The position numbers and the translations under genes are program-made. From the NCBI GenBank assembly GCA_030647655.1, contig JAUSJH010000018.1:1-62484 (forward strand): 62,484 bases of DNA. Reading direction: 5' to 3'. Under the pieces are notes generated by a model, which saw only the letters and a program-made list of their open reading frames with translations, was not told the origin of the DNA and ran no database searches. This document shows positions 8,542 to 31,900 of the stretch, in pieces (within the stretch, counting starts at the first letter, position 1; each line of letters begins with the position of its first letter). This DNA comes from a bacterium. GTDB taxonomy: Bacteria > Patescibacteriota > Minisyncoccia > Phycocordibacterales > UBA2100.

Positions 8542-8554
8542 ATGTCGCGACACT

Positions 8555-8660
8555 GTACCCCATGAGATAAAAATAGTCCAGTTTATTTACCCTGACATTC
8601 AGGTACGTGCGGCGCGCTACTTTGTTCAATATTCGGAATGACTTATCTCACGGGGTGTAC
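8555..8660. mobile_element. ~106-bp inverted-repeat-bounded element (copy A)
   Basis: Arms gtaccccatgagataa (8555-8570) and ttatctcacggggtgtac (8643-8660); same arms as element at 31794-31900. Confidence 0.6.
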
Positions 8661-26384: not shown

Positions 26385-28500
26385 AGACGTCGAGTGTCGC
26401 CTCCCTCGCGTGGCTTTGAATGAATGACTTACGCGCGGGGACGTCGGTGCCCATGAGCATGTCGAAGACCATGTCGGCTTCCTGCGCGTCCTCGATGGCG
26501 ACCTGCTTCAATATGCGGCGTGCAGGGTCCATTGTCGTTTCCCACAATTCTTCAGAATTCATCTCGCCCAAGCCTTTGTAGCGTTGAACAGAGACTTTTG
26601 CGGTTTTCCCGACGCTCCGACCTTCATCGGAAGTCGGGACCCCGACTTCGACTTCGTCGAGCGTCGGGGCTTCCAGCGGCATATCCTTGCCCACGAGCCT
26701 GATGCGTTCCTCGTCGGAATATGCATAGTGAATTTCTTTTCCTTTGCGCACCTTAAAAAGCGGCGGCTGGGCGATGTAGAGATATCCGCCGTCTATTACC
26801 GGTCGGAAGTGGCGGTACATGAGCGTGAGGAGAAGTGTGCGAATGTGCGCGCCATCCACGTCGGCATCGGTCGCAATGATTATTTTGTGATAGCGCAACT
26901 TCGCGACATCGAAAATATCGCCTATCGCAGTCCCGAGCGCGACAACAAGATTACGTATCTGCTCGGAGGCGAGCATCTTGTCGAGGCGTGCGCGTTCGAT
27001 GTTGAGTATCTTGCCGCGCAGAGGAAGCACGGCCTGTATGCGACGGTCGCGGCCCATCTTTGCAGTGCCGCCGGCCGAATCACCTTCTACGATAAAGAGC
27101 TCCGATTCTTCCGCGCTTTTGCTCTGGCAATCGGCGAGTTTACCGGGAAGCGTCATGCCATCCAAGGCGCCCTTGCGCAAAATGCTGTCTTTGGCGGCTT
27201 TGGCGGCTTTGCGCGCCTTCATCGCGAGCGCTATTTTCCCCAGAATAGCGCGCGCGTCGTCGGGATGCCCTTCGAGGAACGTGCTGAATGCTTCGGCAAA
27301 GACGCTATCGGTCGCACCACGCGCCTCGACACTTCCGAGTTTCGACTTGGTTTGGCCTTCGAATTGCACTTCGCGCATTTTGACCGAAATAACCGCCGTA
27401 AGACCTTCCAAGACGTCGTCGCCGGTAAAGGTATCGCTCTCCTTGCCGCCATTCCCATTTTTTATCTGTGAATTCAAGGTGCGCGTAAGTGCGCCCTTGA
27501 ATCCTGTCACGTGCATGCCGCCTTCGGCGTTGTAGATGTTGTTGGCAAAAGCCGAAAGACGTGAGGTGATATCGTCTACATACTGCAGAGCGATTTCCAC
27601 CGAGACACCGTCTTGTTCTTTCTCGATGTGGAAAATATTCTTATGGATCGGTTCGAGATAGCGGTTTTGGAATGCGACAAGAGAGCGTAAGCCTCCTTCA
27701 AAATAGAACGATGTCGAGGGGGCATCGAGCCCAAGTTCACGCAAATAAAATACGTCTGCCCCGTTAGAGCGCGAAGTGTCTCTAATGGGGTCTTTGTCCA
27801 CCTTTCTGAAATCCAGGATAGAAATACGCAGTCCCCGAACAAGGTACGCCTGCTGGCGCATGTGCGCGACGATGGTATCGGAGTGGAGCTCGCGGTCGGG
27901 GAAAATCTTGGCATCGGCCTCGAAAGTAATTATAGTCCCGTGCAGTTTTGAAGAATCGATTTTCTTCGTTTTGCCGATAGGCTTGCCGCCGTCTTTGTAT
28001 TCCTGCATATATTTTCCCCCATCGCGATACACCTCTGCACGCACATGCGAGGAGAGTGCGTTGACGACCGAGACGCCTACGCCGTGCAATCCGCCCGATA
28101 TCTTGTATCCTTCGCCACCGAATTTCCCTCCGGCATGGAGCTTGGTCATTACCGTCTCGAGCGTTGAGACTTTTGTCTTGGGATGTATTTCCACAGGGAT
28201 ACCGCGACCGTTGTCGGCGACGCGTACGCGATTGTCCGGCAGAAGGGCTATCTCGATATCATCCGCAAACCCGCCCATCGCCTCGTCGCGCGAGTTGTCG
28301 AAGACTTCCCAGACGAGATGATGGAGTCCCGAGGTACCGGTCGTCCCGATATACATACCGGGACGGCGTCGCACCGCCTCCAACCCCTCGAGAACGGTAA
28401 TGTCGCTCGCTCCGTAAGAAGAAGTCCCTACTTTAGGGCTCTTTACCTTCCCTCCGGAGGAGGGTCCGCCTCCGGCGGATTTCGCCTTCTTTTTAGCCAT
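26383..28500 (-). CDS. gyrB: DNA gyrase subunit B
   Basis: VRRRPGMYIG, DNGRGIP, GGLHGVGVSVVNALS, EGDSAGG, PLRGKILN, DADVDGAHI, QRYKGLGEM. Confidence 0.95.
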   Translation of the reverse strand: MAKKKAKSAGGGPSSGGKVKSPKVGTSSYGASDITVLEGLEAVRRRPGMYIGTTGTSGLHHLVWEVFDNSRDEAMGGFADDIEIALLPDNRVRVADNGRGIPVEIHPKTKVSTLETVMTKLHAGGKFGGEGYKISGGLHGVGVSVVNALSSHVRAEVYRDGGKYMQEYKDGGKPIGKTKKIDSSKLHGTIITFEADAKIFPDRELHSDTIVAHMRQQAYLVRGLRISILDFRKVDKDPIRDTSRSNGADVFYLRELGLDAPSTSFYFEGGLRSLVAFQNRYLEPIHKNIFHIEKEQDGVSVEIALQYVDDITSRLSAFANNIYNAEGGMHVTGFKGALTRTLNSQIKNGNGGKESDTFTGDDVLEGLTAVISVKMREVQFEGQTKSKLGSVEARGATDSVFAEAFSTFLEGHPDDARAILGKIALAMKARKAAKAAKDSILRKGALDGMTLPGKLADCQSKSAEESELFIVEGDSAGGTAKMGRDRRIQAVLPLRGKILNIERARLDKMLASEQIRNLVVALGTAIGDIFDVAKLRYHKIIIATDADVDGAHIRTLLLTLMYRHFRPVIDGGYLYIAQPPLFKVRKGKEIHYAYSDEERIRLVGKDMPLEAPTLDEVEVGVPTSDEGRSVGKTAKVSVQRYKGLGEMNSEELWETTMDPARRILKQVAIEDAQEADMVFDMLMGTDVPARKSFIQSHAREATLDV
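26608..26646. repeat. palindromic element translated in frame within gyrB
   Basis: cccgacgctccgac...gtcgggaccccgac; encodes VGVPTSDEGRSVG; related copy at 54635-54659. Confidence 0.6.
28451..28479. repeat. palindromic element in gyrB N-terminal extension
   Basis: cctccggagg plus tccgcc-tcc-ggcgga; related tccgcc-agct-ggcgga at 25101-25116 in the sortase. Confidence 0.55.
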
Positions 28501-28945: not shown

Positions 28946-28976
28946 GGCCCGGGCGTCTCGCCCGGGTCTTTTTCTT
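28946..28976 (+). terminator. intrinsic terminator
   Basis: ggcccgggc-gtctc-gcccgggtc + TTTTTCTT. Confidence 0.7.
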
Positions 28977-30768
28977 ATCTCACTTGCCAGCCTTTTTCTG
29001 CGACAGCGGCATTTACTTTTTCCATAATCAAATTTGCTTCCGCATCAGTCAACGTCTTTTCGAATGACTGAAAGACAAGACGGAATGCGAGCGATAATTT
29101 CTCCCCTTTTTCGAATGTGTCGAAAAGTTCGCTACGCACGAGAAGCTCCCCCGCTTGTGCGCGGATAACGTTCAGCACTTCAACAGGCCCCGTTCCTTGT
29201 GAACACCACAGGGCAATATCGCGCACTATGAATGGGTATTTTGAGAATGTTTTGTAGCGTTCAGTTTTTGAAATCGGCAAGTCGTCGTAGGCGGAAGCCG
29301 CGACAACACCGAGCGGTTCTTCCGAGATTATACCTCCCTCTTCTGCCGTACCGACCATCATCATTTCTTTATTATCCTTCCACACGGCGCCAACCTCAAA
29401 CAACTTTACTTTGTAAAGTTGAAGCAGGTCCTTATTGCGTGTATTTCTCTCAAGCGCGTCTTTCAGCCCATCGGTCAGATTCGCACGAAGGTACGGACGC
29501 ACGCCGTCTACTTTGTTTGCGATGACGCGCTCGCCTTTGTCGGCAAATACAGACGTGAATACTTCGGAATAACCTTCCGAAATAAGTTTTTCACGCATCT
29601 GCTCGGCGGCGTAAAAGTTCTTGTTGATTTCCGGCTTCTTCGGAAACGGTGATAACTCGGTTGTGGGGATTTTGTCGTAGCCCACGATGCGAGCGACCTC
29701 TTCTATCAGATCTTCGGGAATGACAAGGTCGAGCCGCTCGAAAGGTGGTGTAATGACAAAATCCCCGCCGCCTATTTCAAACGGCAAATCAAGCCGCTTG
29801 AACGCGTCTACAACATCTGATTCTGCAAGTTTGGTTCCAAGGACGGCGTTGATTTTCTGGAGCGATACAGATACGGTCCATTTCTCTTGCGGCTTCGGAT
29901 ACTCATCAACGAATCCCGCGACTGCCCCACTGGCAAGCTTCACGATGAGATCGGTAGCGGCCCGTAGACCGTATGCCGTGAGCTCGGGAGAGATGACTTG
30001 CTGAAAACGGTCCGATGCGTCGGTACGTAGATTTAAAGTCTGCGAAGCTTTCCTGATGGCCACGCCATCCCAATTCGCAGCTTCGAGAATAATGGCAGTC
30101 GTCGCTTCATCAATTCCTGTTGGCTTACCACCCTTGATACCGGCGATGCTCACCGTCTCGCCCGTATTCCCGTCGGCAATTGTGAGCATGGTGGGCGTGA
30201 GCGCGTATTCTTTGTCATCAAGCCCGAGCATCTTTTCCCCCTTTTTCGCCAAGCGCACATCAAGAGCCCGTACTCCTTTATTCTCGGTAAGTTTTGCCGC
30301 ATCGAAGGCGTGGAGCGGCTGACCGATGTTGAACATCACGTAGTTTGTTGCGTCCACGATGTTGTTGATGCTTTTCTGGCCGATGCTCTCAAGCGCCGTG
30401 CGCAGCCAATCGGGCGAAGCCCCTACTTTGACGCCTGTAATGTATGCCGCACTAAAGCGCGGGCAAAGCTGCGGATTTTCAATCGTCACTTCGAGTGCCT
30501 CAGTTTTTGGTTCCAGCTTGATGTCGGTTATGCCGTACGGATGCGGTACGAGCGGAAGATTCAATATCGCCGAGACCTCTTTCGCAATTCCGCGATACGA
30601 GAGACAGTCGCGCCCGCGATTTGGCGTTACCTTCACGTCGAGAACGATATCGCCTTCATGTCGTCCAATACTTTCTACCTCAAACGCGTGAAATGTTAGT
30701 GCCTCCGAAAGCCCTTCCGGCAGAGGTTTTTCAAAATATGTCTGGAGCCAGTTACGCGAGATTTTCAT
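28975..30768 (-). CDS. pheT: phenylalanine--tRNA ligase beta subunit, short form (no tRNA-binding OB insert)
   Basis: TPNRGRDCLS, INNIVDATNYVM.IGQPLHAFD, RLDLVIPEDLIEEVARIVGYDKIP, C-terminal FDX-ACB (SKYPFIVRDIA). Confidence 0.95.
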   Translation of the reverse strand: MKISRNWLQTYFEKPLPEGLSEALTFHAFEVESIGRHEGDIVLDVKVTPNRGRDCLSYRGIAKEVSAILNLPLVPHPYGITDIKLEPKTEALEVTIENPQLCPRFSAAYITGVKVGASPDWLRTALESIGQKSINNIVDATNYVMFNIGQPLHAFDAAKLTENKGVRALDVRLAKKGEKMLGLDDKEYALTPTMLTIADGNTGETVSIAGIKGGKPTGIDEATTAIILEAANWDGVAIRKASQTLNLRTDASDRFQQVISPELTAYGLRAATDLIVKLASGAVAGFVDEYPKPQEKWTVSVSLQKINAVLGTKLAESDVVDAFKRLDLPFEIGGGDFVITPPFERLDLVIPEDLIEEVARIVGYDKIPTTELSPFPKKPEINKNFYAAEQMREKLISEGYSEVFTSVFADKGERVIANKVDGVRPYLRANLTDGLKDALERNTRNKDLLQLYKVKLFEVGAVWKDNKEMMMVGTAEEGGIISEEPLGVVAASAYDDLPISKTERYKTFSKYPFIVRDIALWCSQGTGPVEVLNVIRAQAGELLVRSELFDTFEKGEKLSLAFRLVFQSFEKTLTDAEANLIMEKVNAAVAEKGWQVR

Positions 30769-30770
30769 AT

Positions 30771-31031
30771 TCAGCCCGTTAGAGATAGAAAACGCTTGAG
30801 ACGATTCTTTATGTACCGCTTCCCCATACCAGTTTTTAAATACTTCTCGCGCGTATATGCGTCAGACTGCTCCCTGCACGCCTCGTAGTACATCAGTTCG
30901 AACGGATGTCGTTTGGCCGTGGCAACCATTTGACCGCCGTTATGTTGTCTCAGGCGTTTTCGTAGATCGTTTGTACACCCGGTATACCATTTACCATCAA
31001 CTTTGCTTCGGAGTACGTAGGTGTAGTGCAT
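30771..31031 (-). CDS. GIY-YIG nuclease family protein
   Basis: YTYVLRS...WYTGCTNDLRKRLRQHN...YYEAC...AYTREKYLK. Confidence 0.92.
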   Translation of the reverse strand: MHYTYVLRSKVDGKWYTGCTNDLRKRLRQHNGGQMVATAKRHPFELMYYEACREQSDAYTREKYLKTGMGKRYIKNRLKRFLSLTG

Positions 31032-31050
31032 AAAGAATCTCTAACGGGCT
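30773..31050. mobile_element. GIY-YIG cassette bounded by perfect 14-bp inverted repeats, between pheS and pheT
   Basis: agcccgttagagat (30773-30786) / atctctaacgggct (31037-31050). Confidence 0.7.
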
Positions 31051-31786
31051 AAAACTGATTGATGAACCGCAAATCGGCGGAATGCATAAGACGGATGTCG
31101 TCGATGCCCCAACGCAGAAGCGCGAGACGGTCGAGCCCCATGCCGAAGGCAAAGCCCTGATACTTTTTCGGGTCGACGCCCGCGTTCTTGAGCACATCCG
31201 GATGCACCATGCCCGCACCCATCATTTCTATCCACCGGTCTTTCAGCTTTTCCGGAACATTCGCGCCAACGAGCCGCATATCCACTTCGACCGACGGCTC
31301 GGTGAATGGAAAGAAGCTCGGACGGAACCGTATCTCGACTGACGCGCCTTTAAACAACTCTTTGAGAAATCGTTCGAGCGTTCCTTTGAGATTTGCGAGT
31401 GTTACATCCTCACCCACGGCAAGCCCTTCTATCTGAAAAAATTCCGCTTCGTGCGTCATGTCGGTCGCCTCGTTGCGGAAGACTTTGCCTGGCACAATGA
31501 CACGGTACGGTGGCACAATGCCCTTCTTCATCTGCGTCTCCATGTAGCGCACCTGGACGGGAGAAGTGTGTGTGCGCAGTACGTAACCCGGCTCATCTTT
31601 GATGAAAAAAGTGTCCTGCATGTCGCGCGCGGGATGGTCCTTGGGGACATTGAGGGCGTCGAAATTGTGCCATTCGTCTTCGAGAAGCGGGCCTTCCGCG
31701 CAAGTAAAGCCCATGCGATAAAATATCTGATTCGCCTCGCGGATGAGGGATGAAATAGGGTGAATGTGCCCTCGTGTTTTCTCCAT
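31049..31786 (-). CDS. pheS: phenylalanine--tRNA ligase alpha subunit, short form (no N-terminal coiled-coil arm)
   Basis: GHIHP, NFDALNVPKDHPARDMQDTF, LRTHTSPVQ, RFRPSFFPFTEPS, GFAFGMGLDRL. Confidence 0.96.
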   Translation of the reverse strand: MEKTRGHIHPISSLIREANQIFYRMGFTCAEGPLLEDEWHNFDALNVPKDHPARDMQDTFFIKDEPGYVLRTHTSPVQVRYMETQMKKGIVPPYRVIVPGKVFRNEATDMTHEAEFFQIEGLAVGEDVTLANLKGTLERFLKELFKGASVEIRFRPSFFPFTEPSVEVDMRLVGANVPEKLKDRWIEMMGAGMVHPDVLKNAGVDPKKYQGFAFGMGLDRLALLRWGIDDIRLMHSADLRFINQF

Positions 31787-31793
31787 ACACGAC

Positions 31794-31900
31794 AGTATAC
31801 CCCATGAGATAATAATTCTAATTTTCCGAGAAAATCTCTCCGCAGCAATCACCTAGACAGTCGAAGATACTTTAAAACTGCTTATCTCACGGGGTATACT
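31794..31900. mobile_element. ~107-bp inverted-repeat-bounded element (copy B)
   Basis: agtataccccatgagataa (31794-31812) / ttatctcacggggtatact (31882-31900), 18/19 complementary. Confidence 0.65.

Follow-up and report, generated by a model that had tools for sequence, protein, structure and literature searches.

What is a gene for a small GIY-YIG nuclease doing between pheS and pheT, enclosed by a perfect inverted repeat (IR) that begins within the stop codon of the one gene and ends just short of the start codon of the other? The question is posed by a stretch of 62,484 nucleotides (the window; contig JAUSJH010000018.1 of assembly GCA_030647655.1) from a Patescibacteriota bacterium of the candidate phyla radiation (CPR). 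Its genome of 0.9 Mb in 21 contigs is called G000 below; G001, G021 and G077 are related genomes, and L-numbers denote individual loci. An earlier note, made from the letters of this DNA alone, had pointed to the unit and suggested that it belongs with other IR-bounded cassettes carrying variable cargo. We find it very probable that the pheS/pheT unit is, or once was, a mobile insertion of a family of IR-bounded GIY-YIG units, and nuclease-bearing units of this kind apparently make up a large, undescribed family of miniature inverted-repeat elements in the ultra-small CPR bacteria, one that may move without a classical transposase. As to how they move, we lean toward an autonomous element comparable to insertion sequences (IS) and their miniature inverted-repeat transposable element (MITE) derivatives, with a nuclease like Slx1, UPF0213 and Ssn proteins acting on folded single-stranded ends.

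The comparison of 28 pheS-pheT junctions from related genomes bears directly on the question. In about 20 of these only 4-8 nt lie between the pheS stop codon and the pheT ATG (TGATatg and TAGCCatg are examples), and the empty sites that the earlier note had envisaged are thus real; the only other carrier of the insert among the 28 is G001, whose nuclease protein is 94% identical. The PheS C-terminus (..INQF and stop) and the PheT N-terminus (MKIS..) are identical with and without the insert. The unit is an insertion that has damaged neither gene, and it furnishes the pheS stop codon itself (T+AG).

The limits of the unit are set by two perfect 14-bp arms (31050 to 31037 against 30786 to 30773; AGCCCGTTAGAGAT and its complement ATCTCTAACGGGCT). 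In this respect the earlier description holds, including the placing of one arm at the pheS TAG and the reading of the other as the coding sequence of the nuclease C-terminus; the latter arm had been said to end 2 nt before the pheT ATG, a distance that belongs to the nuclease stop codon, the arm itself ending 4 nt away. A lone repeat of this length is not overwhelming evidence, because the genome contains about 33 perfect IR pairs of at least 14 bp within 700 bp (the chance estimate is about 2), and the decisive point is the placement of such repeats around homologous loci. The interval from pheS to pheT contains no predicted promoter or terminator on its coding strand, so the nuclease gene is probably co-transcribed with the pheST operon and read from its transcript. 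A scan of the window against Rfam returned a single tRNA and nothing at the pheS/pheT element. The features of the locus are collected in Table 1.

Table 1. Features of the pheS/pheT unit, its host genes and the two gene-less relatives within the window (P1, terminal stem; P2, internal stem; ORF, open reading frame; a slash marks an element boundary).
Feature	Position	Strand	Remarks
pheS, upstream host gene	31049..31786	-	stop codon TAG at 31049-31051; C-terminus ...INQF and stop unaltered by the insert
GIY-YIG nuclease ORF, 86 aa	30771..31031	-	own ATG, TGA stop; PF01541
pheT, downstream host gene	28975..30768	-	ATG 2 nt past the GIY-YIG stop codon
Entire inserted unit, 278 bp	30773..31050	-	limits are the perfect 14-bp IR
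5' arm of P1, AGCCCGTTAGAGAT	31037..31050	-	overlaps A and G of the pheS TAG
3' arm of P1, ATCTCTAACGGGCT	30773..30786	-	codes S-L-T-G and the first base of the TGA stop
5' strand of P2	30947..30961	-	ORF nt 71-85, codons 24-29
3' strand of P2	30788..30802	-	ORF nt 230-244, codons 77-82; 1 nt from the 3' arm
Gene-less relative, GTATA/CCCCGTGAGATAA...TTATCTCATGGGG/TATAC	31795..31899	-	between the TAG of the upstream gene and the pheS start
Second gene-less relative (the 106-bp element of the earlier note)	8553..8660	-	

The bracket proves to be a trait of the family. Among 114 homologous GIY-YIG loci, 87% are enclosed by an IR with a score of at least 10, the score comparing sequence immediately ahead of the start codon with sequence surrounding the stop codon, vs 2-3% in shuffled or displaced controls; the repeats are not peculiar to the pheS/pheT locus, nor was the GIY-YIG gene found conserved at pheST without them. 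Several of the seven GIY-YIG paralogs in G000 are bracketed by IRs of their own, which differ. Across the genus, 56 of 61 genomes encode GIY-YIG genes, with between 0 and 9 per genome at non-orthologous loci, and five genomes have none.

The arms behave as the two strands of a stem, P1. In the CCGTTAGA subfamily, represented by 81 unique loci, the 13 core pairs of P1 are 94-100% Watson-Crick, with compensatory double changes at at least 6 positions and almost no G-T pairs. One such compensated pair falls within the pheS/pheT lineage itself, where TAGCCCG...CGGGCTGA alternates with TAGTCCG...CGGACTGA and the last residue of the nuclease changes from G to D. The third positions of codons 83-85 (TCT CTA ACG), which lie in the 3' arm, show no variation among 51-59 sequences, vs 1.5-2 bits at comparable codons elsewhere; since these synonymous positions are frozen, the 3' arm must be constrained as nucleic acid beyond its coding function. 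A second stem, P2, reaches into the ORF: family-wide it is a 12-bp helix that joins nt 71-82 (codons 24-28) to nt 233-244 (codons 78-82), adjoining the 3' arm, and in the pheS/pheT copy it extends to 15 bp with one mismatch (30961 to 30947 with 30802 to 30788; 93% complementary). Its synonymous third positions covary, with counts of A-T 33 and G-C 22 at one pair, C-G 37 and T-A 19 at another, and T-A 32, C-G 12 and G-C 9 at a third. Scored together on an alignment of 59 sequences, with 500 shuffles and slid pairings as controls, the cells of P1 and P2 are paired in 97.4% of cases, vs 88.7% in the shuffles and at most 50% when slid; 12 of the 25 pairs show double-sided change, and compensated cells number 138 vs 33 in the shuffles, none of the 500 of which reached that figure. 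Given the bracket controls and these covariation controls, we reject a chance origin of the bracket. The minimum-energy fold of the pheS/pheT copy as single-stranded DNA (ssDNA) contains both stems (z = -2.45).

Mobility is best read from sister copies, whose general form is ATGAA/TCCCGTTAGAGAT...ATCTCTAACGGGA/TGAAa. In these, the downstream ATG(A) is the start codon of the host gene and overlaps the TGA of the nuclease, while the upstream copy is the host's original ATG. For four of them (L044, L045, L052 and L053) the matching empty sites are found in G000, each with a single ATGAA, ATGAT or TATG, and the insertions have duplicated (A)TGAA, TGAT or TATG, that is, 4-5 bp including the host start codon. 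Over the flanks of 89 loci, a perfect 4-nt direct repeat is seen in 29 and a match at three of four positions in 6, while in 26 the IR is extended instead (TTTA/TTCA ... TGAA/TAAA); the pheS/pheT copy belongs to this last class. The preferred sites are start- and stop-codon contexts that contain T(G/A)A. A very recent pair comes from the 0.7-Mb genome G077, where copies L085 and L089, at different loci, are identical at 283 of 284 positions (99.6%); their flanks are unrelated starting exactly at A/TCCCG on one side and after ...CGGGATGA on the other, and the identity is thus bounded by the arms (plus TGA).

Gene-less relatives complete the picture. G077 carries at least 9 units of about 125 bp that have the same arms as its nuclease copies and homologous interiors. 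They retain the last 26-28 nt of the nuclease gene, keep P2 as a local hairpin beside the arm, and occupy ATGAA(T) start-codon sites where conserved genes begin; three of these genes, on a tentative reading of their N-terminal translations, are rpmJ, ssb and gpmI. In G000 there is a MITE of 116 bp that has duplicated TGAG on a start codon, together with some 17 hairpin units whose arms are CCCCGTGAGATAA; the window contains two of these. The unit upstream of pheS adjoins the TAG of the preceding gene (TAG/TATA/CCCC...) and ends 12 nt before the pheS ATG, bringing TATACT into the -10 position; since the listed GTG at 31852 falls inside this repeat unit, pheS probably starts with the ATG at 31786. 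The arms of the pheS/pheT unit had rightly been likened in the earlier note to those of the roughly 100-bp elements (CCCCGTGAGAT), and GIY-YIG genes bracketed by exactly such arms do occur in sister genomes (L054 and L056). The idea of a single family at gene junctions, ranging from gene-less to nuclease-bearing units, is likewise upheld, as gene-less and nuclease-bearing units share both arms and insertion sites. What was then called cargo, however, is better seen as the element's own gene, and the gene-less units as its MITE-like derivatives.

The nuclease is intact. It matches PF01541 with an E value of 2.7e-17 (63.3 bits vs a cut-off of 22.6), and among 40 homologs Y5, G18, R26, H30, E50, R61, E62, N76 and R77 are invariant, with Y3 and Y16 nearly so. 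The AlphaFold2 model has a mean confidence (pLDDT) of 92.5 and consists of one GIY-YIG domain (residues 1-68; strands 2-9, 15-20 and 44-52) followed by a C-terminal helix; the 86 residues hold the catalytic domain only, with no separate DNA-binding domain. Both the catalytic set of the GIY-YIG superfamily (two Tyr, Arg, Glu and Asn) and its beta-beta-alpha-beta-alpha fold are present. The fold resembles those of the UPF0213 protein BH0048, Slx1 and, at rank 11, the I-TevI catalytic domain, and among solved structures the closest in sequence are UPF0213 proteins (E 2e-7). NCBIfam gave only a weak, sub-threshold match to group I intron endonucleases, and a protein search of a plasmid collection gave only YazA-like matches. 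Against the two closest orthologous copies (synonymous divergence, dS, of 0.5-0.75), the ratio of nonsynonymous to synonymous substitution rates (dN/dS) is 0.05, from which it follows that the nuclease is maintained by selection. It is the sole ORF of the unit, which encodes no transposase of a known catalytic class. The earlier statement that there is no transposase therefore holds for the cassette; it fails for the rest of the genome, where four Y1_Tnp-like and two rve-like ORFs are present.

The history of the pheS/pheT copy can be followed some way back. The same junctions, TTTTAG(C/T)CCG ... CGG(G/A)CTGAATATG, recur at pheS/pheT in at least 7 other genomes, five of which (L071, L080, L111, L126 and L144) have PheS proteins 60-64% identical and nucleases 65-76% identical to those of the source; an eighth locus, L142, has a junction that is similar only (PheS 67%, nuclease 65% identical). 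Within its own genus, however, the site is empty in most genomes. Because the same junction is found in distant lineages yet is mostly empty within the genus, the copy has either resided long and been precisely lost repeatedly, or been gained repeatedly in a site-specific manner. We regard the copy itself as an old resident, transmitted vertically or homologously under purifying selection, since it has no clear target duplication, a dN/dS of 0.05 and the same junctions in distant lineages. A clean target duplication was sought at this copy and not accepted, as several decompositions serve equally well (the element may have entered within an ancestral TGA or TAA stop, or may have duplicated TGAA before 2 bp were lost). 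The spacer is in any case a general hot spot for insertion (L016, L018, L017, L023 and L030): two genomes have a PNPOx-like ORF there, two more have small ORFs of other, unrelated kinds, and one, which belongs to a different family, has a gene-less IR-bounded unit whose arms, ACCCTGTTAAAT, are those of another G000 GIY-YIG paralog. In yet another genome (L105), an independent insertion of the start-codon type sits on the pheT ATG. The empty site of G021 (L009) reads TAGCCatg, the first five bases of which match the left junction of the element (TAGCC/CGTT...); this TAGCC may, weakly, be read as the deletion scar of a lost copy.

How might such a unit move? Having entered the pheS-pheT spacer of 4-6 nt, it would fold at its ends whenever it became single-stranded, in replication, repair or DNA uptake. 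The arms would pair as P1 (13-17 bp) and the sequence just inside the 3' arm would pair with codons 24-28 as P2 (12-15 bp), and the resulting branched stem would be recognised, and nicked at its base, by the Slx1/UPF0213/Ssn-like nuclease. The freed or copied unit would then be joined into T(G/A)A sites at the starts or ends of genes with the aid of host repair or ligation, and gene-less units, sharing these ends, would be mobilised in trans. That folded ssDNA is the substrate, and that joining occurs in this manner, we infer; that the GIY-YIG nuclease itself drives movement we consider an even call. Somewhat more doubtful is the proposition that a bare GIY-YIG domain of 86 residues serves as the "transposase" of a new mechanistic class, one that reads P1 and P2 together, nicks at their base and leaves host ligation or repair to complete the joining at T(G/A)A start or stop codons.

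Several points weigh against this account of an autonomous, nuclease-driven element. A hydrolytic GIY-YIG nuclease cannot perform strand transfer alone, so joining must be outsourced, and we know of no established transposition pathway in which it is. In addition, G000 and G077 each encode Y1_Tnp-like and rve-like proteins that could act in trans. Flanking direct repeats are anywhere from 3 to 6 nt long and the left junction of the very recent copies L085 and L089 is imperfect, neither of which resembles the work of a classical transposase. The pheS/pheT copy has no target duplication, its flanks extending the IR instead (TTTAG...CTGAA). There is no sign of recent movement in G000, where the paralogs are only 42-54% identical to the pheS/pheT copy. 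The apparent co-evolution of arm and nuclease is partly trivial, the 3' arm being inside the gene. Lastly, homologs about 70% identical are labelled as coming from many phyla, and some of these cross-phylum labels may be binning errors; the labels are doubtful because matching loci carry differing ones. Thus, L106 and L110, 100% identical over 661 nt, are labelled Planctomycetes and Syntrophales, and L094 and L103, with nearly identical junction flanks, Moraniibacteriota and Bdellovibrionales.

Three other explanations deserve consideration, the least of them being that the arms and P2 are not DNA ends at all, rather messenger structures that stabilise, process or restrain translation of the nuclease message within the pheST transcript. 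Probable co-transcription and the covariation of long-range pairs would suit such a device, as would an additional 14-nt pairing, 93% complementary, between 30803-30816 and 31026-31039, which joins the spacer and start codon of the GIY-YIG gene to codons 72-77 and would bury the start codon in the pheS/pheT copy. This last pairing is missing even from the closest ortholog, in G001, and we have discarded it as a family feature and regard it as local or due to chance. G-U pairs make up only about 1% of the P1 and P2 cells, and mismatches show no strand bias; because wobble pairs are nearly absent and both stems are kept in gene-less copies, we argue for structure at the level of DNA rather than mRNA. 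With the identity of young copies stopping exactly at the arms, and with target duplications and empty sites to account for, an RNA device alone is very improbable. A more substantial proposal is that the unit is non-autonomous, moved in trans by a Y1/HUH protein (IS200/RAYT-like) or an rve-type protein, with the GIY-YIG gene as a passenger or as the source of a homing or "maintenance" nuclease that would cleave empty sites, like TnpB in IS605. Y1 enzymes of IS200/IS605 act on folded ssDNA ends and insert beside a fixed tetranucleotide without true duplication, a mode that would suit the (A)TGAA pattern as well as the conserved junction of pheS with pheT. Candidate enzymes are at hand: besides the four Y1_Tnp-like and two rve-like ORFs of G000, G077 has two and three, Y1-like genes occur in 56 of the 61 genomes of the genus, and one Y1 gene of G000 lies 400 bp from the MITE on contig C2. 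The Y1 genes of G000 are, however, flanked by different palindromes of their own (TCCAAGGTCGAACCTTGGA, CAAGGACGGTCCTTG), and the ends of IS200/IS605 elements are not inverted repeats of one another. The two gene types are also uncoupled in eight genomes, four having GIY-YIG without a Y1 match and four the reverse; the GIY-YIG gene is the only one always found within the ends; and the MITEs keep part of its 3' end and of no other gene. The Y1_Tnp-like ORFs (about 245 aa, at C2:1590-2305 and C16:76743-77621 of G000), with perfect palindromes of 18-22 nt (TCCAAGGTCGAACCTTGGA; CAAGGACGGTCCTTGACA), form a second, separate system of repeat plus nuclease, present in 0-15 copies per genome in the genus. 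Mobilisation in trans strikes us as unlikely.

Only slightly less unlikely is a domesticated module of the Ssn type, in which the nuclease would serve the host as a site-specific ssDNA nuclease (for example, as in Neisseria, by controlling ssDNA that enters the cell or recombines), would have its recognition sites in the repeats around its gene and elsewhere in the genome, and would be encoded by a fixed gene that is no longer mobile. Published Ssn biology (PMC11893778) provides the model, and at the pheS/pheT locus the strong purifying selection, the persistence of the same junctions where PheS is only 60-67% identical, the location of the gene inside an essential operon, with neither a promoter nor a terminator predicted for it, and the lack of young copies in G000 all speak for it. 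A fixed host function sits poorly with the patchy distribution in the genus, where three carriers stand against about 20 empty sites, and with copy numbers that range from 0 to 9 at non-orthologous loci, five genomes doing without the gene altogether. The young copies and bursts of MITEs elsewhere, the insertions with target duplication on start codons of essential genes and the absence of the published SRM motif argue against it as well.

Ssn is nonetheless the closest published system. As described by Chenal et al. (Nat Commun 2025, PMC11893778), Ssn proteins have a single GIY-YIG domain and cleave ssDNA next to hairpin repeats; these NTS/SRM repeats flank the ssn genes on both sides, in inverted orientation, and are scattered through the genome. 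What the enzyme recognises is a DNA stem, which two halves can make up between them, together with neighbouring single-stranded sequence. The authors of that work remark that the repeat-gene-repeat layout resembles an insertion sequence, with no mobility shown and no CPR members discussed (PMC11893778). The pheS/pheT protein is likewise a single domain (86 aa here, about 90 aa there), and its gene is flanked on both sides by a repeat dispersed in the genome. In Ssn loci, however, each flank is a complete local hairpin of 20-50 nt, whereas here each flank supplies one half of a single stem, a second stem runs into the ORF, and in the GIY-YIG element family target duplications and empty sites occur alongside young copies and MITE derivatives. 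The SRM pattern HGTCWY..YYVSBRH..WNVSBRG..RNCYNB is not enriched in G000 (4 matches in the genome vs 4-11 in shuffles, none within 300 bp of the seven paralogs). A literature search for a bacterial element bounded by terminal IRs with GIY-YIG as its only gene, or for targeting of start codons by GIY-YIG proteins, found nothing beyond the Ssn paper.

Other mobile systems share individual features. Bacterial IS and their MITEs, the Correia elements of Neisseria among them, have ends in common between autonomous and gene-less copies. Terminal IRs and insertion near gene starts are found in them as they are here, and so are short target duplications (seen here in sister copies) and co-transcription with host genes (probable here); the differences are that the sole gene of the present unit encodes a hydrolytic GIY-YIG protein, not a DDE, DEDD, HUH, serine or tyrosine enzyme, that coding sequence makes up the element's 3' end, and that the junction repeat varies in length. 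At 278 bp the unit is also, to our knowledge, several-fold below the smallest insertion sequences known. With repetitive extragenic palindromes and bacterial interspersed mosaic elements and their REP-associated tyrosine transposases (REP/BIME-RAYT, of the Y1 type), and with IS200/IS605, it shares a small nuclease gene, an inverted flanking palindromic repeat presumed to be dispersed by the nuclease (in part from PMC11893778), a proposed folded ssDNA substrate and a fixed short word at the insertion point. The fold and chemistry of the enzyme are different, GIY-YIG proteins having no covalent HUH-tyrosine intermediate, and the genomes considered here hold separate Y1-like genes with palindromes of their own. 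Free-standing homing endonucleases (phage T4 Seg, the I-TevI domain) resemble the pheS/pheT gene in their GIY-YIG domain, in being an optional gene between conserved genes and in being present or absent at the same junction in different lineages; unlike the pheS/pheT protein they are not bare of a DNA-binding domain, and homing leaves no terminal IRs, target duplications or MITEs. By sequence and fold the best matches are Slx1 and the UPF0213 proteins (YhbQ/YazA, BH0048, EF2693). Slx1 is a structure-specific nuclease that cuts branched and stem-loop DNA. Genes for Slx1 and UPF0213 proteins, however, are single-copy housekeeping or uncharacterised genes, for which we know of no report of bracketing repeats or mobility. 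We also considered an integron cassette (an ORF with attC) and set it aside: isolated units are scattered over gene starts and ends, and no array was seen, although no search was aimed at an integrase.

Should the nuclease indeed move the element, its transposition chemistry would lie outside the DDE, DEDD, HUH, serine, tyrosine and Cas1 classes, and it would become clear why single-domain GIY-YIG genes carry flanking repeats of their own, a question raised by the Ssn work of 2025. At about 278 bp it would then be the smallest autonomous mobile element of cellular genomes known to us, and one built for host translation to pass through, with the pheS/pheT copy indicating that such elements can persist for long inside essential operons. 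Within the reduced genomes of CPR bacteria, members of the family remodel essential genes at their promoters, start codons and operon junctions. The internal stem is a clean example of coding sequence that is also constrained as DNA structure, and the paired specificities of nuclease and stem, which differ between subfamilies and covary, could be turned into programmable tools for cutting ssDNA.

Some paralogs and repeats lie beside or within other genes. At C20:130014-130310 of G000, a GIY-YIG paralog with GCCCCTCACATG arms lies against the 5' end of a tRNA-Cys gene, with a 7-bp direct repeat, CCAGTAG; the terminal GGG of the element together with the repeat rebuilds the 5' end of the tRNA, and L059 presents a similar case. 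Other paralogs abut a putative tmRNA gene (C5:13884) and a putative RNase P RNA gene (L054), both read from the sequence only. Finally, within the window, a hairpin of 32 nt with the same arm motif (CCCCGTTAGAGCGCGAAGTGTCTCTAATGGGG) lies in frame within gyrB at 27759-27790, where its coding strand specifies ...PIRDTSRSNG... in what appears to be a variable insert of GyrB.

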